In this document: positions 9,485-64,000 of the stretch, one piece after another
How the letters are laid out: the number at the start of each line of letters is the position of its first letter
Numbering within the stretch: position 1 is the stretch's first letter
Source: Octopus vulgaris
Taxonomy: Eukaryota
Length of the DNA: 64,000 nucleotides
Assembly (NCBI GenBank): GCA_951406725.2
Contig: OX597823.1
Location: 8,866,001-8,930,000, forward strand
Direction of reading: 5' to 3'
Notes under the pieces: generated by a model
The model's input: the letters and a program-made list of their open reading frames with translations, nothing else
Database searches by the model: none
Told to the model about the DNA's origin: nothing
Made by a program: the position numbers and the translations under genes

Positions 9485-9701
9485 CGGGAAGCTTTATGAA
9501 AATAAACAAAATACGAAGGCAGGTGGAATACAAACAAACAATAGTATTAGTATGGCGCTCAGGAATATAAATAAAACAAGTCTTTTACGTTTCGAGCCTA
9601 CGCTCTTCAACAGAAAGATACACAGAAAAGAAACACGGAAAGAAACAAGGAGAGAAAAATCATGCGTGCAGAAGCTAGCGAATCAACATGGCGATCTGGC
9701 G
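9483..9701 (-). mobile_element. Penelope-type terminal-repeat fragment carrying a minimal variant HHR (9582-9617)
   Basis: Minus strand CTTT-CTGTTGA-A-GAGC-GTAG-GCTC-GAAACGTA-AAAG; flanked by (TA)n; homologous to 35378-35585 on the + strand. Confidence 0.65.
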
Positions 9702-22949: not shown

Positions 22950-23146
22950 AGAAGGTGAATGAATTATCCCAGTATGGATAATTCGGTTAACCGATACCTG
23001 GGTAGCAAATTCACGTCACAAAACACCGTTGAAGCTATATGCCAAGGCCAGGGATCCCGTGTTCTCGTGTGTAAATTTGTGTGTTTTTTTAACTATGAAT
23101 AAATGAAAGAATGGAGTCGAACGACGATTTTAACAAAATTCCTTTA

Positions 23147-23229
23147 CTCTCGACACATGTTTCGAAGGCTGCATATTCCTAATTCCGAAGGAATAAAGGG
23201 TGCATTATGCCGCCATCTCATCAGGAAAG
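23147..23229 (-). ncRNA. Type I hammerhead ribozyme motif (long helix II)
   Basis: Minus strand CTTTC-CTGATGA-GATGGC...GCCTTC-GAAAC-ATGT-GTC-GAGAG: full core, stem I CTTTC/GAGAG, GUC cleavage triplet. Confidence 0.75.
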
Positions 23230-23340
23230 ACAAGGAATTTATGTCAGCACCATGAAGAACAAAAACTTTTAAATGACTGCTCACATGATGTCCACAGTAA
23301 AAGGTTTTCGCTCTTCATGGTGCTGACATAAGTTCCTTGT

Positions 23341-23423
23341 CTTTCCTGATGATATGGCGGCATAATGCACCATTTATTCCCTCGGAATTAGGAATATGCA
23401 GCCTTCGAAACCTGTGTCGAGAG
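23341..23423 (+). ncRNA. Type I hammerhead ribozyme motif (inverted partner copy)
   Basis: CTTTC-CTGATGA-TATGGC...GCCTTC-GAAAC-CTGT-GTC-GAGAG; the first stem II pair is mutated relative to the minus copy. Confidence 0.65.
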
Positions 23424-23462
23424 TAAAATTTTGTTAAAATCGTCGTTCGACTCCTTTCTTTC

Positions 23463-24535
<1,073 letters not shown>

Positions 24536-24794
24536 GCGATTATCTCCCTTACACTGGAAGAAATCACTCACTACCTCCCCTTATTTAGAACTCTTTTAAA
24601 CATAAACATAACGATAACTCTATTCAATATAAACATAACGTCGTAAGAAATTTGAAAAGCTAAACGCGAAACCCGTCTTTCTTCTAAATTATGTCATTGT
24701 AAGGAAAAAAAAAATTTAATATTCATCACACATATTGACGCAAATATATATATATTTTAACCTTTAAGCCTTCTGTAGTTTTTTCACTTTTTAC

Positions 24795-24825
<31 letters not shown>

Positions 24826-36326: not shown

Positions 36327-36395
<69 letters not shown>

Positions 36396-36397
<2 letters not shown>

Positions 36398-36806
36398 GGG
36401 TAGAGAAATTAGAGAAATTTCCTACCTGTGGCTAGCATGCATAAAATAGTCAACAGACAAAGTTTTTCATATAAAATTAGTGTACATTCATACATTAACA
36501 GGACACAGTATATGCTAAAACAGAGTCTAAAGCATGGTTAAGATTAATTTCTTATTTGTTCATTAATGCTCGAAACCTAGGTACAAGTGGTAACTATTGA
36601 AAATGTTTTTATTTTTCAACCCCTTCGAAATTACTTTTAACCGTGGTTTGGACTTTGACAGTTTCTTTTAGCATGTAAGGTATCCTATTATGGTCACCTC
36701 TTTCGTGTATGAATGTACACGAATTTTATATGAAAAATTTGTTGTCTATTGTCTATTTTATGCATGCAAGCCACTTGTAGAAAATTTCTATAATTTCTCT
36801 ATCCTA
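36396..36806. mobile_element. Tc1/mariner-type MITE with ~100-bp imperfect TIRs
   Basis: TA|CAGGGTAGAGAAATT...GTGTACATTCATAC mirrored by GTATGAATGTACAC...AATTTCTCTATCCTA|TA; the interior recurs at ~37012-37183. Confidence 0.75.
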
Positions 36807-37238
36807 TATATTTTCTTAATATGAATTTAGTAATTTTGAAGAAATTCGGCACATAATATTTTATTTGCTACCGACTATAACTGCGCTTGCGCGGTGGATT
36901 TGAAAAATTATAATGTATAAATGTGTGCTATGTGCTCTCTATTTGTTCCATAATTAAACATTAATTATTAGCGTCCTTGCTGATGAAGTACACAGATAAC
37001 AAATTATCATTATTTGTTCATAAATGTTCGAAACCTAGGTACAAGTGGTAATTATTGAAAATGTTTTTATTCTTCATCTTCTTCGAAATTACTCTTAACC
37101 GCGGTTTGGACTTTGACCGTGCCTTTTAGCATATAATGTGTCCTGTTAAGGTCACCAATATTGTGTATGAATGTAAACTAATCATATATATATATATATT
37201 TATATATATATATATATATATGTATACATATATATATA

Positions 37239-41320: not shown

Positions 41321-41470
41321 GATGATGATGATAATAATAATAACAACAACAACAACAACAACAACAATAATAATAATAATAATAATAATGGTGCTATTAA
41401 GTTAGACATGGCCTGGACCAATCTTTGGTCGAAGCATATCTAAGTTTATCTAATTCTAATAATAATAATG

Positions 41471-41542
<72 letters not shown>

Positions 41543-41543
<1 letters not shown>

Positions 41544-43655
41544 GGACCTGGACGAAAACAAACTGTTCCCAGAAGAGCAGAAAGGATGCCGCAAAGGCTC
41601 ATATGGCTGTAAAGATCAACTAATGATTAATAAAGCCATAACTGAAGACAACCACAGAAAGAAGAAAGGCCTCAGTATGGCCTGGATTGACTACAAAAAG
41701 GCGTTTGATAGCATCCCCCACACATGGATCCTCGAAACACTAGCCATTAACAAAGTAGCACCAACAATCATAAAATTCATAGAGCACTCTATGAATAAAT
41801 GGCAAACAGTCCTACACCTCCAAACAAAAGAGGGACTCATGAAAACCAAAGACATCCCCATTAGAAGAGGAATATTCCAGGGAGATACGCTCTCTCCACT
41901 CCTTTTCTGCTTGGCACTGTCACCTCTATCTGATATGCTAAATAGAACTGGATGCGGATATAAATGTTACGGCAAAACGATCAGCCACCTTTTATATATG
42001 GATGACCTAAAACTATACGCTGCAAATGACAAACAGCTGGAAACACTATTAAAGACAGTTCATGGATTTACCAAAGAAATAGATATGAAATTTGGATTAG
42101 AAAAATGCGCCAAAGTAACCATGAAAGAGGAAAACTAGTTAAGAGTAACAACATCACACTAGATGAAGCAAATGAAATAAAAGAATTAGACCAAAGCCAA
42201 ACTTACAAATACTTAGGAATCCATGAACTAGATAAGACACAACACACACAAATGAAAGAGAAAATAAAAAAAGAATATTATAGACGAGTTAGATCAATAC
42301 TAAACACAGAGCTCAATGCTAAAAACAAGATAATAGGTATCAACACTTTAGCTGTCCCAGTTATAAGTTACAGCTACAATATCCTTAACTGGACACGAAA
42401 TGAACTGACCAAAATAGACAGGAAAACAAGAAAAATAATGACAGGATCTAGGATGCATCACCCAAAATCTGACATAGAAAGACTATATATACAACGTATA
42501 GAAGGTGGTAGAGGCCTTATACAGCTGGAAAACTACTATAAAATAACCACCATGGGACTGCAAAAATATCTACTTCAGAAGGAAGGAAAACTGATCCAGA
42601 TAGCGGCAAAACACGAGCAAAACAAAAAACTGTTCTCAGTATTTAAGGAAGCTGACAAATACAAACAAGAAATCATACCACCTAATAAACATGAAGAAGA
42701 AGAAGAAGAAGATGAAGAAACAACAAAAGCTATAAAAAAAATGAAATCCAAACTAAAAATAGAACAGCAACGAACCATGATAAAACGATGGCAAGAAAAG
42801 CCCCTTCATGGTAAATACTGGACTAAACTAAACGCAAAAGAAATAGACAAAGAAAAATCCCAGCAATGGTTGAGAAGCTCAGGACTCAAAGCAGAAACAG
42901 AGGGATTTTTAATTGCAGCACAAGACCAAAGCCTACCCACCAGAAATTACCAAAAACATGTAATGAAAAGAAATATTACAAGTAACTGCAGAATATGTGG
43001 AGATGGACAAGAAACAATAAATCATATTATCTCTAGCTGCCCAGTCCTGGCTAAGAAGGAATATATTCACAGACATGACAGAGTTGGAACTTACATACAT
43101 TGGAAGCTATGCCAACATTATGGAATAACAACAGAAAAAAGATGGTATAGGCACACACCAGAAAAGGTCACAGAAAACGAGAAAGCAACCATACTCTGGG
43201 ATATGCCGATACACACAGATAGAGAAATTAAGGCCAACAGACCAGATATAGTTGTCAGAGACCATGAAGAAAAAAATGCTTTCTAATTGATGTATCAGTA
43301 CCGGCAGATGACAACGTGTCTCTAAAAGAAATGGAGAAACTCTCAAAATACAAAGACCTGGAAATAGAGGTAACTACAATGTGGAATCTGAAAACAGAAA
43401 CAATTCCTATCATAGTAGGTGCATTAGGCATGATAAAAAAATATTCAGACAAATACATAACAAAAACACCAGGACTTACAAACACATATAACATACAGAA
43501 AATTGCACTACTAGGCACTGCACACATCCTACGCAGAACACTTTCCATACAATAACCATCAGAGCATCACAACAAATCACAGCACATACCCAAGGCACAC
43601 AGAGCTGCGCTCGGTAGTGAAGTGAAAGCACGCTATAAAAATAAAAATAAAACAA

Positions 43656-50059: not shown

Positions 50060-50120
<61 letters not shown>

Positions 50121-50155
50121 AAAAGGAGATGTGGAACACGAGTTGTGATATATAA

Positions 50156-50472
50156 AAAGGAAATGAAGAAAATGCTGACAAAATAATTTAAGTAATTTAA
50201 GTAATTTAATTAGGTGAAAGTTCTTTTTACCGGTTGCGCATTTGTTATGCTTATCAAAATATATTTTTTAAAGAGAGATTAGAGTTCCTTTTCTGATAGA
50301 TTTTTTCCTCTTATCTGATAAGAGGAAAAAAATCTATCAGAAAAGGAACTCTAATCTCTCTTTAAAAAATATATTTTGATAAGCATAACAAATGCGCAAC
50401 CGGTAAAAAGAACTTTTACCTATTAAATTACTTAAATTACTTAAATTATTTTGTTAGCATTTTCTTCATTTC

Positions 50473-50476
<4 letters not shown>
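50156..50476. repeat. Near-perfect ~320-bp palindrome
   Basis: ~160-bp arms around a single T at 50316 (CCTCTTATC-T-GATAAGAGG). Confidence 0.92.
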
Positions 50477-50869: not shown

Positions 50870-51744
50870 ATGTATTGGCGCCATCTTATATTTTTAATTT
50901 TGCGCATCTGCATTTTTGGTTTTTGAATTTATCGCCTACACAAACTTGTACGGTCAGTTGGGCACCATCTGTGAGAAAAACAGCACCATGATGCAATTCA
51001 CTTTACTAGAAATTTGGAAATGACATGCAGTACTGCTTGGTATTCCCGCCGGAAGCTCTAATACGAACTAATGGTGAACACATAGAACAGAAGTTGGCTT
51101 CCCCTGTCCTCAAAACATGTACCGAGAGTGATACATATCAAACATCCAGTAAACATCATAGTGTTTGGAGTGATATGTAGTGATGGCGACGTTATACCTC
51201 CATTCATCAGTCCACACGGCCTCAGACTCAAGACGGAGGCTTACATCAAGTGCTTGGTGGAGGTCATGTTACCCTGGGTCAAGGAGATCGCAACCGGAAG
51301 GCCCTATGTTTGGCGACAGGAATTTGCGCCATCCTACACAAGCAGGAGAACCTAGTCATGACTGTCAGACAATTTCCGCGAACACATCACACTTAACATC
51401 TGGTCACGTGACTACCCAGACTGCCACACACTTGATTATTATGTGTGTGGTGCAGTTGAGAGGGAAACCAGCAAAACTCCTTGTAACACCCAGGATGAAC
51501 TGAAGACAAGGATTATGGCAGCATTCACCAACTTAAACAAGGAGGACATCCAGAAAAGTTGCAGAAGATTCCGAAGTCGTCTGCTGGCCGTGGTTGAAGC
51601 CAATGGAGATATTATTGAATAAATTTACTCTTTAGTATTTCAAGCTTTTTTAATGTAAATTTCGTAAATATACCTGTTAAAATGATATGTCTGTGCTTTT
51701 TCATTTTTGTGTAATGTAGACGACATCATATTCCCTGCACCGCG
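50870..51744 (+). mobile_element. maT/DD37D (Tc1/mariner superfamily) transposon remnant, internally deleted
   Basis: KHPVNIIVFGVICSDG...YVWRQE(D)FAPSYTS...IWSRDYPDCHTLDYYV...VEANGDIIE*; 37 codons between the second and third catalytic positions; in-frame stops; ends before TA. Confidence 0.82.
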
Positions 51745-51789
<45 letters not shown>

Positions 51790-51938
51790 AATATAAGAGA
51801 GAGGTCACTATATGGCTCAATCTAGCACTAGTTAATCCAAAAGGTTTCAACCACAAAAATATATGTTTCCCATGAAAGTCGGTACGATTGTTAGCTCACA
51901 CGAACAGGGCAAATAAAAAATAACAAAAATACAGATTA

Positions 51939-52020
51939 TTTTGGGACAATTGTTTCGCTATTAATGAATTAAATGTAATTTTACTTACAAAAAGATCCAC
52001 TTGTAGCTCCTCAGCCAAAA
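51939..52020 (-). ncRNA. Type I hammerhead ribozyme motif
   Basis: TTTTGG-CTGAGGA-GCTA...TAGC-GAAAC-AATT-GTC-CCAAAA on the minus strand. Confidence 0.82.
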
Positions 52021-52377
52021 CTATCTGGATGAAATCCACTCAATCACACGCCAGATTTTACCATAACGATAAATACACGCGTGGTTCAATTGATTACATC
52101 CGACGTTATAATTCAAATGCCTCTACTAACAGCGCGCCAAACTTTCACGGAAAACAAATACCACATTTAGAAATATGTAGCATAATTATAATTAATTAAT
52201 AAGGGTGAGAGAATTAGATACTAATTTAATAGTATATCTATTCAACACCGTGAAAGTTTGGCGCGCTGTTAGTAGGGGCATTTGAATTATAACGTCGGAT
52301 GTAATCAATTGAACCACACGTGTATTTATCGTTATGGTAAAATCTGGCGTGTGATTGAGTGGATTTCATTCAGATAG

Positions 52378-52459
52378 TTTTGGCTGAGGAGCTACAAGTG
52401 GATCCTTTTGTAAGTAAAATTACATTTAATTCATTAATAACGAAACAATTGTCCCAAAA
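52378..52459 (+). ncRNA. Type I hammerhead ribozyme motif (one stem II mismatch)
   Basis: Same motif with TAAC instead of TAGC; predicted cleavage after 52453. Confidence 0.7.
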
Positions 52460-52910
52460 TAATCTGTATTTTTGTTATTTTTTATTTGCCCTGTTCGAGT
52501 GAGCTAACAATCGTACCGACTTTCATGGGAAACATATATTTTTGTGGTTGAAACTTTTTGGATTAACTAGTGCTAGAGTGAGCCATATAGTGACCACTCT
52601 CTTATATTTATTTTGTAAAAATATTATAATATATTATAAAATATTATAATAATCCAGGTTTCTCGGAGCAGTGGGCCACTTGGTGTTGAATAGATATACT
52701 ATTAAATTAGTATCTAATTCTCTCACCCTTATTAATTAATTATAATTATGCTACATATTTCTAAATGTGGTATTTGTTTTCTGTGAAAGTTTGGCGCGCT
52801 GTTAGTAGGGGCATTTGAATTATAACGTCGGATGTAATCAATTGAACCACACGTGTATTTATCGTTATGGTAAAATCTGGCGTGTGATTGAGTGGATTTC
52901 ATCCAGATAG

Positions 52911-52992
52911 TTTTGGCTGAGGAGCTACAAGTGGATCTTTTTGTAAGTAAAATTACATTTAATTCATTAATAGCGAAACAATTGTCCCAAAA
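52911..52992 (+). ncRNA. Type I hammerhead ribozyme motif
   Basis: TTTTGG-CTGAGGA-GCTA-(43 nt)-TAGC-GAAAC-AATT-GTC-CCAAAA; predicted cleavage after 52986. Confidence 0.84.
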
Positions 52993-53266
52993 TAATCTGT
53001 ATTTTTGTTATTTTTTATTTGCCCTGTTCGTGTGAGCTAACAATCGTACCGACTTTCATGGGAAACATATTTTTGTGGTTGAAACCTTTTGGATTAACTA
53101 GTGCTAGATTGAGCCATATAGTGACCACTCTCTTATATTTATTTTGTAAAAATATTATAATATATTATAAAATATTATAATAATCCAGGTTTCTCGGAGC
53201 ACTGGGCCACTTGGTGTTGAATAGATATACTATTAAATTAGTATCTAATTCTCTCACCCTTATTAA

Positions 53267-53317
<51 letters not shown>

Positions 53318-53536
53318 ATCCAAACAAGAAAACACAAAAAAAAACACAACAACGCGAGGACGTGGAACAAATATAGTATTATTGGACGCTCAGGAAAGAA
53401 GGAAAGAAGGAGGGTTTAACATTTCGAGCGGAGCTCTTCGTCGGAAACATAGGAGAAGGTAAGATCCAGAGAAGGGAAGACAGAGGGAAAAAATCGCCAA
53501 CAGTACACACGAGGTCACATTATTTAATTATATATA

Positions 53537-54056
53537 CTGAGAAAAACATCGCAGATGGTCGTACAGACGTGAGGGGAAATGGCTGAATCACCATACGTGA
53601 GATATCAGAGGATATGCAGATTAGTTACGGTTCAGTTCAGTCGATTATCACTGACGATTTGGGTATGAGAAGTGTGCCTGTCAAGTTTGTGCCAAAACTG
53701 CTTTCAGCCGACCAAAAGGACACCCAGGTTTCAGTTGCACAAGATCTCCTTGGTTGTGTCGAGAACGATGGGCCCTTTTTGAAAACTTTGCGTAGGCATT
53801 TCAGCGGGCATCCCCAAGTTTTTGGCAACATTCGATACAGATTTTCGGTTCCATCTCCTCCGTCATTGTCAATGTGACGGACACACGTTACACACCTTCT
53901 TAGCACTGCTGTAGACAGGTTAAATGAGCTAGAACTTTGAAACTTTGCACTCATGCATGGCAGAGTTCAAGGTCAATCTGTACCAAGCGGCTTCACTCCC
54001 TGTGCATTAAGTTCGTTATTATGACAACAGTCCGTATACTTATTGTTCAGAACACG
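53537..54056. mobile_element. Second copy of the opposed-ends mariner derivative
   Basis: EKNIAD...QISYGSVQSIITDDLGMRSVPVKFVPKLL on +, then the inverted 5' end finishing ...CACG|TA; reverse-complement match to 32508-33020. Confidence 0.8.
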
Positions 54057-54302: not shown

Positions 54303-55718
54303 TGTGTGTTTGTATGCATTTATATGTACATAAGGGAAGATAATGACAGGCAATAATCGATCACAATAGATGAGAGACGACGTTGATTTCAGCGGGAGTT
54401 GAACCCAAAGAGTAGAGGACCTGAACAGATAACCCTAGGAATTCTAGGCTTTCTATCGAATGCCTTAATTATTCTACCAATCCTCCAGTTTTGTACACTG
54501 CACTAGGGTGTGTGTGTGTGTTTGTGTGTTTGGCAGTGTATGTTCATAAGTATAATGCTTATACTCACAGAATAATGCAACTAATATTTTAAGCTGTACT
54601 TTGTTGACTTATTCTTTGCTTTTGTAACTAATTAATATATTCAACTCTGTTTCGATTTCTCTAATGGAAACTGCTCTCAGCAAAATAACTATTTTGTAAA
54701 TATGCAAAATAAACTGTTATCTTGTGAGAGGAGTGTTGAGCGGTGAATGAGGAAGATTTTCACAGACGGTGACAAAGTCTAATAGGAAATAAAGTTTGGT
54801 TTGTGCTGTTTTTGTTACTTGGTCACTTGTCATTTGAAATTCTACGAACCTGCTCATCTTAGCAAATATGCATGATGCCTCTAAAACAAACAAACACACA
54901 TACACACACGCATGCACAGACACACGTACACACACACACACTCACGCACAAAGAAATATATTAAAGAGTATCTATTCACATTACGTTTATGCAGAAATTA
55001 AAATAGAACACAACTGTCATCACACATAGAAACACATACATATAAACGTATGAGTATACTTTCACAGGTACACGCACACACATACACAGGGACACACACA
55101 CACAGGCACACCACACATGTACATCCATTTCTGTCTTTAATATTATATACATACACACACATACACACACACACACGTACGCACACACATGCATATATAC
55201 GCACTCACACACACATGGACAGACACATGCACACACACACACCTTAAACCCCACACATATATACAATAAATACACATATATACAATAAATGAGTGGAGAA
55301 AGGCAAAGTAGTGGCACTCAACATACTCTGTAGGAACTGCGTATATTAAATATATGCCCGAACTGCACATAACTTAAAGTTTCGTGAGCGCTTGCTCTAA
55401 GTCCACCTCGATAGGTACTTGAAAATAGTGTAAGAAGTTTAAAAGAAATTGCAAATGACTTCTAGGTGCTTAAGACTCTATGCCATATGATTATAATGCT
55501 ATGAAAGCGACGTTATGGAAAGATTGTTGGTATAGTATGTTGGCGCCAATAATTTGACACCGGCCAGCAATGTAATGTATTCAGGGATAACAGTTGCATT
55601 TGATAATGTACGACGTGAGGTAGTCAAGATTTTGCCAGTTACTCGATCAGTCATGTTGAAGAGTAATATAGCATGAACAGAACAAACTATCCATATTTTG
55701 CAGAAAAATCTGTCGGCA

Positions 55719-55790
55719 GCCAGCCATGAAATTCGATCTCACTTTCCTGTGATTACGCGTCAAGTGCTTTACCATTAAGCTAAAGTGCCC
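55719..55790 (-). pseudogene. tRNA-like pseudogene / Pol III head within a repeat
   Basis: GGGCACTTTAGCTTAATGGTAAAGCACTTGACGCGTAATCACAGG...GAGATCGAATTTC: A-box, anticodon-like arm, degenerate B-box; acceptor stem does not pair. Confidence 0.6.
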
Positions 55791-57835
55791 CAACGACAAA
55801 TTCTTCTGCAAATTAAGTATATATAAATCTAGCTTTATAAGACGCTATCGTGCATTAAATTCAACTTACGTTGAAAGTCAACAAAGTTTACTTTAGAACG
55901 TTGAGATGTATTGAAAGAAACAGATAAGGAAATAATTGTATTTTCAAACAGGATGATGCTAATAATATAGCATGAACAGGATAAACGATCGATATATTGC
56001 AGAAAAATCCGTCGACGGCCAGCCATGCGACTCGAACTCACATCCCTGTGATTACACGTGAGTTCGAGTCTCATGGCTGGCTGCCGGCAGATATTTCTGC
56101 AAAATATGGATAGTTTATCCTGTTCATGCTATTGTATTAACATTATTCTGCGTTTGAGAACAAAATTATTTCTTTATCTGTATCTTTCAATACATCTCAA
56201 CGCTTCTAAAGCAAACTTTGTTTGGTGAATTTCAGCAGAAGTTGAATTTAATATGTATATATTAAAAGATAATGCAGATATTGTGTACAGGGGAAATATT
56301 TTAAAATTGAATAACCATAGTTCCCAGGATCAATTTCTGTATTATCTAAATGAGATTCTGAAAGCATTGAACCAGCAGTACCCACTGTAATTAATCCGAT
56401 GTTGGATTTTCATGCCTATATAATGCGTCTTGTAAAACTCTGTAATAATATAAGACCACCAACACAGTAATAGAATTCCCTTGTGATAGAGGTCAACAAT
56501 TTCACGGAAAATTTTGCTAGCGTCAATTCTTTAATTCCTGAAGTCAACTAATTTGACATTTGAATTGCAAAGTCTTCAATTACCTGCCAGACACAACTTT
56601 GCCATTAATACCGATAAATCTCTGGGGCAATGACCAAAAGTTGTTCGACTGAACTAAGAAGTTTCTGTCTTTTCACATTATCAACTCTCGATATATTTAG
56701 AATTGCTACCCTGATAGTCTTTTCTATCAATACACCGCAATCCCAAAACTGGAGTATTTTTTATCCCGAAGCTTTGGAATGAACAAATATGTATATAAAA
56801 AAATATTTTGCTAAAACTTCTATTTTGCTGAATATACACTTTATCACTATTTTATTATTCAAATAATATGCGTGGCAAAATGTGCAAGTTTCTACACAAT
56901 GTTGCTTTGGTACGATGTCCAGATATTACCCTGTATCAACACATACATATACACCCATGTACACACACACACTGCAAACAATACTCATGTGAGATGAATG
57001 AAAAGTGAGATAGATGGACACAGTAATTTTATGTTTTAAAATTAAAAGTAAATTCAATTTTAAAATCTATGCTTTAAAATTAACAGGACTCTTTCCTATT
57101 AATTATTTTATCATTACGATTTCATATAAAGTGAAGAATACATCTTCATCGGTTTTAAATTTATGAATCAATTACCGTTTGTTAAATTCGCATCACACCA
57201 TTACGTCATTGCCTGGATAAAAAAAAAATTACCTATTCGTCTTTAATGATAATGTATAAAAGAAAACATATTATTTTCCTTTATTTCTTTTTAAATAACT
57301 AGACAAAAAATTAGGAAATTATTTGTCTGTACGTTATGATGGTGCTTATATCTATTTATTTATATTCAATTCTAGCAATGCCAATGTGAGTTGTATGGCA
57401 TATGATATGCTACTGTTTTGTCATATTCAGCGCAACTATTTACGTCATATATGAAAACCATTACTAACATAAGTTGCTATAGATGCAGGTGCTATGCAAC
57501 GTCAATTGTGCTTATATGGCAACCAAACTATCTTGAACTGTGTTATCCCTCTGTTTTACTATGTGCTGTAAGCATTCGTTAATTTCATTAACTGGAATAG
57601 TCCAAATTCTACCGAAAGGGGCTGATGGTTCATGTGCAATGCATTACTTATACGCGTGGTTGATCAGTACTACCTTGGGAGCAAAATAAAAACCACAAAA
57701 ATAACAAAAACAACAATCTTGGTTGAATTTGTCTACCTAACAAAATACACTTTAATTTTTAGTATTCAGTTAATAATTAACTATTCCTACGCTTGTGGTT
57801 AAGAGTTGGAGTTTTCTTAAACAGTCAATACATAT

Positions 57836-61049: not shown

Positions 61050-61057
<8 letters not shown>

Positions 61058-61197
61058 TCAATATAGGGTGGCAAAAAATTTCGTAGAATTTATTTGCCAC
61101 CAGCGGCCTAGTGGGAAAAATTTAATTTTTTCCCACTAGGCCGCTGGTGGCAAATAAATTCTACGAAATTTTTTGCCACCCTATATTGATTAATTAT
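61050..61197. repeat. Fold-back inverted repeat (~71-bp arms) at the start of the array
   Basis: ATAATTAATCAATATAGGGTGG...GTGGGAAAAA-TTTAAT-TTTTTCCCAC...CCACCCTATATTGATTAATTAT. Confidence 0.93.
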
Positions 61198-61348
61198 GAA
61201 TTTTCTGGTTAATTCCGTAATGGAATCGGCGGCTTATATTTGCTGCCGATAAATTTGGCGCGAGTGCGATGATTTGAAAATTTTAGGTCAGATATTGCCG
61301 AGGCAGGGATAGAGGTGCCTCGTGATAATATCTGCTCGGATTTGGCTG

Positions 61349-61453
61349 TTTCTTACTGACGAATCTATCGGCCTATGGAAGATTGGCTTGATTTAATTTA
61401 ATCAGGTTAGTTTACCATTAAACAATATATGAAACGGTGCATCGTATAAGAAA
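61349..61453 (+). ncRNA. Type I HHR, unit 1 (stem II ATATAT variant)
   Basis: TTTCTTA-CTGACGA-ATCTAT...ATATAT-GAAACGG-TGCA-TCGTA-TAAGAAA. Confidence 0.75.
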
Positions 61454-61832
61454 TTACAGGGTAAATGTTTTTTTAATTTTCTCCTGGTTTGCGGAATTAA
61501 TGTTATTTTGCGGTTGAAGCTTTGGCTGTTATTTCTAGTGGGTGAATGGCCTATTATGGCCATTCCTTGATTGTGATGTTGAACTTATAAATGGTCTATG
61601 ACTATTTAATTTTTTCCCACTAGGCCGCTGGTGGCAAATAAATTCTACGAAATTTTTTGCCACCCTATATTGATTAATTATGAATTTTCTGGTTAATTCC
61701 GTAAAGGAATCGGCGGCTTATATTTGCTGCCGATAAATTTGGCGCGAGTGCGATGATTTGAAAATTTTAGGTCAGATATTGCCGAGGCAGGGATAGATGT
61801 GCCTCGTGATAATATCTGCTCGGCTCTGGCTG

Positions 61833-61937
61833 TTTCTTACTGACGAATCTATCGGCCTATGGAAGATTGGCTTGATTTTATTTAATCAGGTTAGTTTACC
61901 ATTAAACAATAGATGAAACGGTGCATCGTATAAGAAA
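61833..61937 (+). ncRNA. Type I HHR, unit 2
   Basis: Stem I TTTCTTA/TAAGAAA, stem II ATCTAT/ATAGAT, stem III ACGG/TCGT; GUA site at 61930. Confidence 0.88.
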
Positions 61938-62316
61938 TTACAGGGTAAATGTTTTTTTAATTTTCTCCTGGTTTGCGGAATTAATGTTATTTTGCGGTTG
62001 AAGCTTTGGCTGTTATTTCTAGTAGGTGAATGGCCTATTTTGGCCATTCCTTGATTGTGATGTTGAACTTATAAATGGTCTATGACTATTTAATTTTTTC
62101 CCACTAGGCCGCTGGTGGCAAATAAATTCTACGGAATTTTTTGCCACCCTATATTGATTAATTATGAATTTTCTGGTTAATTCCGTAATGGAATCGGCGG
62201 CTTATATTTGCTGCCGATAAATTTGGCGCGAGTGCGATGATTTGAAAATTTTAGGTCAGATATTGCCGAGGCAGGGATAGAGGTACCTCGTGATAATATC
62301 TGCTCGGATCTGGCTG

Positions 62317-62421
62317 TTTCTTACTGACGAATCTATCGGCCTATGGAAGATTGGCTTGATTTAATTTAATCAGGTTAGTTTACCATTAAACAATAGATGA
62401 AACGGTGCATCGTATAAGAAA
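62317..62421 (+). ncRNA. Type I HHR, unit 3
   Basis: Same intact motif; site at 62414. Confidence 0.88.
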
Positions 62422-62801
62422 TTACAGGGTAAATGTTTTTTTAATTTTCTCCTGGTTTGCGGAATTAATGTTATTTTGCGGTTGAAGCTTTGGCTGTTAT
62501 TTCTTGTGGGTGAATGGCCTATTATGGCCATTCCTTGATTGTGATGTTGAACTTATAAATGGTCTATGACTATTTAATTTTTTTCCCACTAGGCCGCTGG
62601 TGGCAAATAAATTCTACGAAATTTTTTGTCACCCTATATTGATTAATTATGAATTTTCTGGTTAATTCCGTAATGGAATCGGCGGCTTATATTTGCTGCC
62701 GATAAATTTGGCGCGAGTGAGATGATTTGAAAATTTTAGGTCAGATATTGCCGAGGCAGGGATAGAGGTGCCTCGTGATAATATCTGCTCGGATCTGGCT
62801 G

Positions 62802-62906
62802 TTTCTTACTGACGAATCTATCGGCCTATGGAAGATTGGCTTGATTTAATTTAATCAGGTTAGTTTACCATTAAACAATAGATGAAACGGTGCATCGTAT
62901 AAGAAA
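62802..62906 (+). ncRNA. Type I HHR, unit 4
   Basis: Same intact motif; site at 62899. Confidence 0.88.
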
Positions 62907-63284
62907 TTACAGGGTAAATGTTTTTTTAATTTTCTCCTGGTTTGCGGAATTAATGTTATTTTGCGGTTGAAGCTTTGGCTGTTATTTCTAGTAGGTGAAT
63001 GGCCTATTATGGCCATTCCTTGATTGTGATGTTGAACTTATAAATGGTCTATGACTATTTAATTTTTTCCCACTAGGCCGCTGGTGGCAAATAAATTCTA
63101 CGAAATTTTTGCCACCCTATATTGATTAATTATGAATTTTCTGGTTAATTCCGTAATGGAATCGGCGGCTTATATTTGCTGCCGATAAATTTGGCGCGAG
63201 TGCGATGATTTGAAAATTTTAGGTCAGATATTGCCGAGGCAGGGATAGAGGTACCTCGTGATAATATCTGCTCGGATCTGGCTG

Positions 63285-63389
63285 TTTCTTACTGACGAAT
63301 CTATCGGCCTATGGAAGATTGGCTTGATTTAATTTAATCAGGTTAGTTTACCATTAAACAATAGATGAAACGGTGCATCGTATAAGAAA
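63285..63389 (+). ncRNA. Type I HHR, unit 5
   Basis: Same intact motif; site at 63382. Confidence 0.88.
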
Positions 63390-63767
63390 TTACAGGGTAA
63401 ATGTTTTTTTAATTTTCTCCTGGTTTGCGGAATTAATGTTATTTTGCGGTTGAAGCTTTGGCTGTTATTTCTAGTGGGTGAATGGCCTATTATGGCCATT
63501 CCTTGATTGTGATGTTGAACTTATAAATGGTCTATGACTATTTAATTTTTTCCCACTAGGCCGCTGGTGGCAAATAAATTCTACGAAATTTTTGTCACCC
63601 TATATTGATTAATTATGAATTTTCTGGTTAATTCCGTAATGGAATCGGCGGCTTATATTTGCTGCCGATAAATTTGGCGCGAGTGCGATGATTTGAAAAT
63701 TTTAGGTCAGATATTGCCGAGGCAGGGATAGAGGTGCCTCGTGATAATATCTGCTCGGATCTGGCTG

Positions 63768-63872
63768 TTTCTTACTGACGAATCTATCGGCCTATGGAAG
63801 ATTGGCTTGATTTAATTTAATCAGGTTAGTTTACCATTAAACAATATATGAAACGGTGCATCGTATAAGAAA
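63768..63872 (+). ncRNA. Type I HHR, unit 6 (stem II ATATAT variant)
   Basis: Same motif with one stem II mismatch; site at 63865. Confidence 0.75.
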
Positions 63873-64000
63873 TTACAGGGTAAATGTTTTTTTAATTTTC
63901 TCCTGGTTTGCGGAATTAATGTTATTTTGCGGTTGAAGCTTTGGCTGTTATTTCTTGTGGGTGAATGGCCTATTATGGCCATTCCTTGATTGTGATGATA

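Follow-up and report, generated by a model that had tools for sequence, protein, structure and literature searches.

Layout of the insertion

The window, i.e. the whole analysed stretch of 64,000 nucleotides from Octopus vulgaris, contains at 51784–53275 an insertion which consists of a 466-nt inverted arm and 1.9 direct units of 533 nt, placed head-to-head inside a (TA)n microsatellite (Table 1). This layout agrees with the first-pass annotation, where an inverted partial unit of about 465 bp joined to approximately 1.9 direct units had been noted in (TA)n. In the sense of the ribozymes carried by the insertion, the arms face outwards, with their 5' ends joined at 52249/52250 and (TA)n adjoining the 3' end of each. 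As (TA)n is present on both flanks, no target-site duplication is readable.

Table 1. Coordinates of the insertion, its parts and two further elements of the window
Feature	Position	Strand	Remarks
Left (TA)n target run	51745..51783	none	TA run spans 51745–51795
Inverted 5'-truncated arm, 466 nt	51784..52249	-	copy of direct 52682–53145
Type I hammerhead, motif intact	51932..52027	-	C3 52014, cut after 51945
Head-to-head junction	52248..52250	none	CC at 52248–52249 fits either arm (2-nt overlap)
Direct unit 1, 533 nt	52250..52782	+	differs from both other arms at six points of the common 365 nt
Type I hammerhead, C-A mismatch in stem II (A52440)	52371..52466	+	C3 52384, cut after 52453
Predicted 3'-terminal hairpin (GGTG...CACC) and AT-rich motif	52682..52744	+	second copy 53213–53275
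Direct unit 2, partial, 493 nt	52783..53275	+	stops at the recurrent 3' terminus
Type I hammerhead, motif intact	52904..52999	+	C3 52917, N7 52921, cut after 52986
Right (TA)n target run	53276..53313	none	TA run spans 53272–53313
Broken PLE-like coding relic	23656–24800		between (TA)n runs; GIY-YIG and CxxxxCxxC
484-bp hammerhead array	61050..64000	+	short inverted arm 61050–61125; runs past the window end

The direct arm occupies 52250–53273, its end being 53275 if the 2 nt common with the TA run are included. Its units are spaced by 533 and then 531 nt, and over their common 493 nt show 7 substitutions and one 2-nt indel. In the alignment, the inverted arm differs from the contiguous direct stretch 52682–53145 by 4 substitutions and one 2-nt indel, and from direct unit 1 by 9 substitutions (365 nt compared). 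Overall, the arms diverge by 1–2.5%, and the private changes are split 6/1/3 among the three arms, a distribution for which equal arms are not rejected (exact P = 0.18). At the junction, the arms are offset by 101 nt without a palindrome, and the family allele at the equivalent position 52782 is C.

The arms also end differently. The terminus of the direct arm recurs in insertions of this family and comes directly after the hairpin-plus-motif segment 52682–52744, 289 nt downstream of the hammerhead cut, while the sense 3' end of the inverted arm meets (TA)n 130 nt short of it, at the equivalent of 52614. Site 52578 is G in unit 1 and T in both the inverted arm and unit 2. We take G to be the majority state in the public sequencing runs considered below, as there is no T row among 40 of the 51 variant rows; this single site hints that the units of the template may have been non-identical.

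The hammerheads and the repeat family

The type I core is intact in all three hammerhead copies, stem II being perfect in two of them and having one mismatch in the third. The two predicted plus-strand cut sites are 533 nt apart, and the TAAC variant occurs in the copy with C3 at 52384. Stem I comprises 7 contiguous pairs, and 12 pairs in all around one A-A mismatch; stem II has 4 pairs and is closed by a 43-nt loop with inner hairpins. These observations repeat what had been read at first pass (three copies, plus-strand sites 52453 and 52986, TAAC in one copy, 43-nt spacing). The very short stem III seen then is also present, with 2 bp and a palindromic tetraloop, but the palindrome, given earlier as CAATTG, extends to 8 nt (ACAATTGT) rather than 6.

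The type I descriptor, when run on dinucleotide shuffles of the window and on shuffles of the unit, yielded no match in 60 shuffled windows and in 3000 shuffled units (0/3000), and the hammerhead motif is far beyond chance. Rfam produced nothing at the gathering score across the whole window; an E-value scan of the window gave sub-threshold matches only, the best being microRNA-precursor models on the inverted repeat. As the Rfam hammerhead models find nothing at the insertion, the ribozyme was called from the motif descriptor and from folding. The alignment of the three hammerhead copies contains no covariation, since its rows are nearly identical. A search of metagenome and viral contigs with a 24-nt ribozyme pattern returned 0 matches.

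In folding predictions, the single-ribozyme fold of the intact copies lies 2.7 kcal/mol above the minimum, and that of the copy with A52440 lies 4.9 kcal/mol above a competing fold. The palindrome of stem III is predicted to form an 8-bp duplex of -6.4 kcal/mol, and dimeric cleavage via this stem is plausible under the model. Given the stem II mismatch and the competing fold of the upstream plus-strand ribozyme, the locus may release its monomer poorly.

According to the accessible part of PMC4209133, canonical animal type I hammerheads have helix I of ~6 bp, helix II of 4 bp, helix III of 1–2 bp and a palindromic loop, and cut as dimers, whereas the minimal hammerhead of Penelope-like elements (PLEs) has helix I of 4–5 bp, helix II of 7–8 bp and an extra base inserted between 9 and 10.1. 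The copies in the insertion lack the extra base, and have helix II of 4 bp and helix I of 7 contiguous pairs. Judged by its motif, the ribozyme is thus of the canonical animal type I and not the PLE minimal form, and its earlier likening to the short-stem-III ribozymes of PLEs does not hold. In the available text of a preprint (10.64898/2026.07.22.740005), only one of nine predicted retrozyme dimers was cleaved in vitro.

The unit has 32% GC, and its monomer is strongly self-paired by folding prediction (z -6.46, 0 of 100 shuffles), the circular form being predicted to be 66% paired. The list of open reading frames in the window has none of at least 100 aa overlapping the unit, and a tRNA scan of the unit found none. 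The unit is present in 20 of the 24 listed public runs, which carry 6 organism labels and come from 10 studies; the best run contains 0.46 of the sampled unit words, so that none reaches half, and among the unit-bearing runs listed there is no RNA-labelled one. Contigs of four runs (X1, X2, X4 and X10) were placed on one unit (52500–53045), numbering 4160, 2159, 1165 and 25, the last in X10; X10 may be of RNA type, and its contigs are not taken as a sign of expression, while X1 and X2 were read to 76–80%. The unit is therefore a high-copy, multi-copy family. The search for homologues proposed at first pass, with a single-locus unit as the outcome that would speak against that reading, was made in these public runs and yielded thousands of variant contigs per DNA-type run, and the suggestion of a bounded insertion of a mobile family was borne out.

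Variant positions were defined as those reaching at least 10% in a DNA-type run, which gave 26 positions from 40 of the 51 variant rows. N7 (G/C) is the sole variable core position among them; four more are situated in loop II, and one is the outermost pair of stem I. The 40 fixed positions of the core and inner stems contain none of the 26, but this avoidance does not reach significance (P = 0.13). In stem I, position 52912 is changed at a frequency of 4% in X4, and one contig of X10 also carries the change.

Six contigs of X4 exit the unit at 52744 into (TA)n, which is the right end of the insertion. In X2 there is another opposite-strand joint (52703/52861, direction unspecified), also with a 2-nt overlap, and tandem joints were found in X2 and X10. 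The left end (52614 equivalent) is absent among 24 of the 198 loose ends, and the head-to-head junction of the insertion itself is absent among the joints listed for the four runs; the missing junction proves nothing, as X1 and X2 were read in part and may come from other individuals or species.

A dip in depth at 52747–52784 was considered as a monomer boundary and ruled out, as it coincides with six clustered differences and is bridged by one X10 contig. Loose ends at 52893, 52993 and 53029–53031 (X1, X2, X4, X10) mark partial relatives that diverge just before or just after the ribozyme, which suggests that the family may comprise subfamilies with different ribozyme modules.

Other elements of the window

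The window has three further cases of a head-to-head arrangement in (TA)n, at 61050, 22950–23447 and 50118–50475. The first of these opens the 484-bp array, which had been described at first pass as unrelated to the insertion. The array has six hammerheads, four with a perfect stem II, and a near-palindrome of 12 nt makes up its stem III region, with a predicted duplex of -17.5 kcal/mol. When the 533-nt unit was aligned to it collinearly, the local score was 177 against 112 ± 11 in shuffles (0 of 300), while on the reverse strand it equalled chance. After removal of the ribozymes the score remained at 153 against 91 ± 10 (0 of 500 shuffles), and under strict scoring 3 of 500 shuffles were as good. 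Both families enter (TA)n at a common motif, CACCCT-(A)-TATT(G/A)ATTAATTAT, situated directly 3' of a predicted hairpin closed by GGTG/CACC, the inner sequence of which differs. Since the alignment is beyond chance and the entry motif is the same, the two families are likely distant relatives with an ancestor and a start signal in common, and the description as unrelated is not supported.

The 9-mer TTTGGCGCG is found at 52257, 52790 and 61254, about 50 nt past the common terminus in both families, in otherwise AT-rich units. It resembles, in our view, an E2F site or a Pol III A-box, and may presumably be a promoter element.

The element at 22950–23447 is a third hammerhead element (C3 23224, cut 23152, minus strand). 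Its arms lie head-to-head in (TA)n, and their 3' ends are unequal by roughly 150 nt. The element has no detectable relation to the 533-nt or the 484-bp family, and the comparison of the 533-nt unit with 22950–23259 was no better than shuffles. At 50118–50475, two (TA)n runs enclose a nearly perfect inverted repeat of 320 bp, extended on one side only by 39 nt, like a PLE tail; motif scans revealed no hammerhead in it.

The coding relic has its GIY-YIG segment at 24086–24535, at the end of a broken frame, with the CxxxxCxxC motif upstream. Its Pfam GIY-YIG score is 18.2 bits, below the curated cut-off of 22.6, and its Atlas value is 0.96 to clusters with 31–34% GIY-YIG; a CxxxxCxxC motif upstream of GIY-YIG is described for Neptune and Nematis in the accessible text of PMC8557442. 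By these features, the relic indicates that PLEs are present in this genome and does not identify the partner of the retrozyme. Compared with the 3' region of the relic, the 533-nt unit scored such that 287 of 300 shuffles were as good, and no link between the unit and an autonomous PLE sequence was found within the window.

Several further elements were observed. The right neighbour of the insertion (53314–53540, minus strand) enters the same (TA)n and has a minimal hammerhead of PLE type, now decayed, with its core at 53444 and an additional base ahead of stem II. The terminal 13 nt of this neighbour match part of the unit; 9 of 500 shuffles did as well, which is not significant after four comparisons. 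Similar decayed PLE-type motifs occur at 9613 (minus) and 35459 (plus). A frameshifted non-LTR retrotransposon relic with RVT_1 and zf-RVT matches lies at 41401–43286. Older inverted-repeat structures are present at 55640–56290 and 36388–36814 (arms 82% and 70%, respectively), the former with an additional partial direct repeat, like a decayed tandem-plus-inverted insertion. The left flank of the insertion (51000–51744) resembles the terminus of a decayed Tc1/mariner-type element; for the tested frame of this flank there was no Pfam match.

Relation to known systems and origin of the insertion

We consider it well supported that the insertion is a non-coding, multi-copy type I hammerhead repeat, and likely a non-LTR retrozyme copied in trans by a PLE enzyme into a TA microsatellite.

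The likeness to non-LTR retrozymes (PMC7229834; 10.64898/2026.07.22.740005) includes non-coding tandem units with a type I hammerhead in each, GC under 50% and a strongly self-paired monomer, the last predicted here; the axolotl HHR_Amex2 has the same short palindromic stem III of 2 bp and a tetraloop (PMC7229834). No LTR-type internal region lies between the units. Non-LTR retrozymes are further characterised by the lack of a primer-binding site and a polypurine tract and, where a target-site duplication occurs, by one longer than 4 bp; (TA)n on both flanks of the insertion would mask such a duplication. The unit length exceeds the 150–450 bp given in PMC7229834 and is within the 51–972 bp given in the preprint. 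A difference is loop II of 43 nt with inner hairpins, which makes the usual contact between loops 1 and 2 doubtful in the folding model. The preprint calls active those elements that have two consecutive complete ribozymes; here both plus-strand copies keep the core, the upstream one with the stem II mismatch. Taken at the level of sequence, the insertion fits non-LTR retrozymes on every conclusively tested feature. An inverted 5' arm, a (TA)n target and a fixed internal 3' end are not described in the available portions of PMC7229834 and of the main text of the preprint, and open-access text contains no description of the 533-nt family or of inverted arms in hammerhead retrozymes; repeat databases may list the family. 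The 533-nt family is likely new, within the known retrozyme repeats, and no new class of element.

PLEs have been proposed as the movers of non-LTR retrozymes (PMC7229834; 10.64898/2026.07.22.740005), and the layout of the insertion resembles that of PLEs with an endonuclease (EN+; Neptune, Naiad, Penelope/Poseidon; PMC8557442, PMC3846280, PMC11167929). The reported PLE signature combines a partial tandem and a neighbouring inverted copy truncated on its 5' side with a one-sided tail and a bias to (TA)n (PMC8557442), the head-to-head form being the commonest (PMC3846280) and most insertions being 5'-truncated (PMC8557442). The insertion has the same partial tandem with a head-to-head inverted truncated copy, the same (TA)n target without a readable duplication as in Neptune and Naiad (PMC8557442), an internal 3' end after a stem-loop and unequal ends of the two arms. 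On the other hand, EN+ PLEs carry an ORF with reverse transcriptase and GIY-YIG, both absent here, and the offset of the 3' ends (130 nt, not the 30–40 nt of the PLE tail) speaks against copying by a PLE. By its structure, then, the insertion is not an autonomous PLE, yet it bears a PLE-like integration scar. The non-autonomous Chlamys PLEs (MRC1; PMC8557442) are similarly non-coding, with pLTRs and multicopy head-to-tail insertions, but are algal, belong to a clade mostly without hammerheads and have 3' sequence in common with known autonomous families.

As the direct arm runs across two cut sites and has neither end at one, a single linear monomer extending from cut to cut cannot have been the template; a multimer, a circle or repeated jumps are needed. 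Furthermore, 1.9 units were copied through two uncut ribozyme sites, which points to an uncleaved multimer or a circle, the multimer being slightly favoured. The earlier proposal of a multimeric or circular RNA is thus supported against a single linear monomer, while the circle is not specifically supported. The template switch invoked at first pass fares similarly: a switch between same-sense RNAs cannot invert a copy, so that the inversion needs either priming off both DNA strands or fold-back of the cDNA, and only in the latter form could a switch be retained.

We propose the following route. A source array would give rise to a multimeric RNA, in which pairs of hammerheads are predicted to cut slowly via the palindromic stem III, releasing monomers and perhaps circles. 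A protein with PLE reverse transcriptase and GIY-YIG would nick (TA)n, and copying would start internally just past the hairpin, at the recurrent end 289 nt beyond the cut, and then cross two uncut ribozyme sites through 1.9 units. A second cDNA, likely primed off the other DNA strand, would produce the inverted arm, followed by head-to-head joining with the 2-nt overlap. The anole PLE enzyme is reported to cut and extend both strands of AT-rich DNA in vitro, to start internally in RNA at a stem-loop and to use mainly unprocessed RNA, ribozyme cleavage being dispensable (PMC11167929). Extension of both strands and an internal start would together yield two outward-facing arms joined at their truncated ends.

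For animal retrozymes, the PLE link has been argued from co-occurrence, the common ribozyme type and pLTR similarity (PMC7229834; 10.64898/2026.07.22.740005). The insertion is useful because its anatomy ties a retrozyme to PLEs, which is evidence of another kind: the integration scar is a PLE one, and the fixed internal start is away from the cut. Moreover, in a high-copy family with small differences between units, the choice between circle and multimer can be tested from the genome assembly alone. The layout as such is already known as routine for PLEs, and the class of element is not new.

The main rival for the origin of the inversion is fold-back, in which the 3' end of the cDNA, after reaching 52250, would self-anneal at 52682, copy to 53145 and join the left target; we regard it as a tentative alternative. 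The inverted arm is indeed nearer to contiguous 52682–53145, with 5 events over 466 nt as opposed to 9 over 365 nt for unit 1; T at 52578 is common to the inverted arm and unit 2 against G in unit 1 and the run majority, and the 2-nt overlap coincides with the foot of the terminal hairpin. The same sharing is, however, also predicted by priming from both DNA strands on one transcript. Self-priming has been proposed for PLE inversions, but the junction here lacks the palindrome of the cases behind that proposal (PMC3846280), and the PLE enzyme extends both strands directly in vitro (PMC11167929).

The published retrozyme model, rolling-circle copying of one circular 533-nt RNA into all three arms, is likewise regarded as a tentative alternative. 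It would explain how the arms pass the cut sites without stopping, and is compatible with the predicted pairing of the circular monomer, with the circles shown for coral, mussel and axolotl retrozymes (PMC7229834) and with the 6/1/3 split of private changes. One circle should however yield identical arms, yet at 52578 a state rare or absent in the runs joins the inverted arm to unit 2; this is one site, and reversion or conversion could explain it. The preference of the tested PLE for unprocessed RNA in vitro (PMC11167929) also stands against the circle.

A more speculative extension of the multimer reading, which we put forward without strong commitment, is that the GGTG...CACC hairpin with its AT-rich motif, kept in both diverged families, is used by a TA-targeting PLE enzyme as its reverse-transcription start, the templates being uncleaved heterogeneous multimers and not circles. 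If so, the hammerhead would be a passenger or a brake outside transposition, the rolling-circle model would be wrong for the 533-nt family, and the motif would provide a handle for tracing the mobilising enzyme.

That the repeat is the 5'-truncated non-coding 3' end (pLTR) of an autonomous PLE, instead of a self-standing non-autonomous family, is improbable: layout and target are as in PLEs, whose insertions are mostly 5'-truncated, but the units are head-to-tail without an ORF between them, tandem joints occur also in X2 and X10, and the ribozyme lacks the features of the PLE minimal form. An assembly artefact (inversion or duplication), or a rearrangement at the DNA level in a satellite whose ribozyme is dead, is very improbable, for although the junction is missing among the listed joints and assemblers struggle with such structures (PMC8557442), the arms diverge, (TA)n adjoins either outer end, the right end is the recurrent end of the family and the layout is common to three other insertions in the window. 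A DNA transposon (MITE) was ruled out, since the arms in inverted orientation are unequal and represent truncated copies of a tandem unit.
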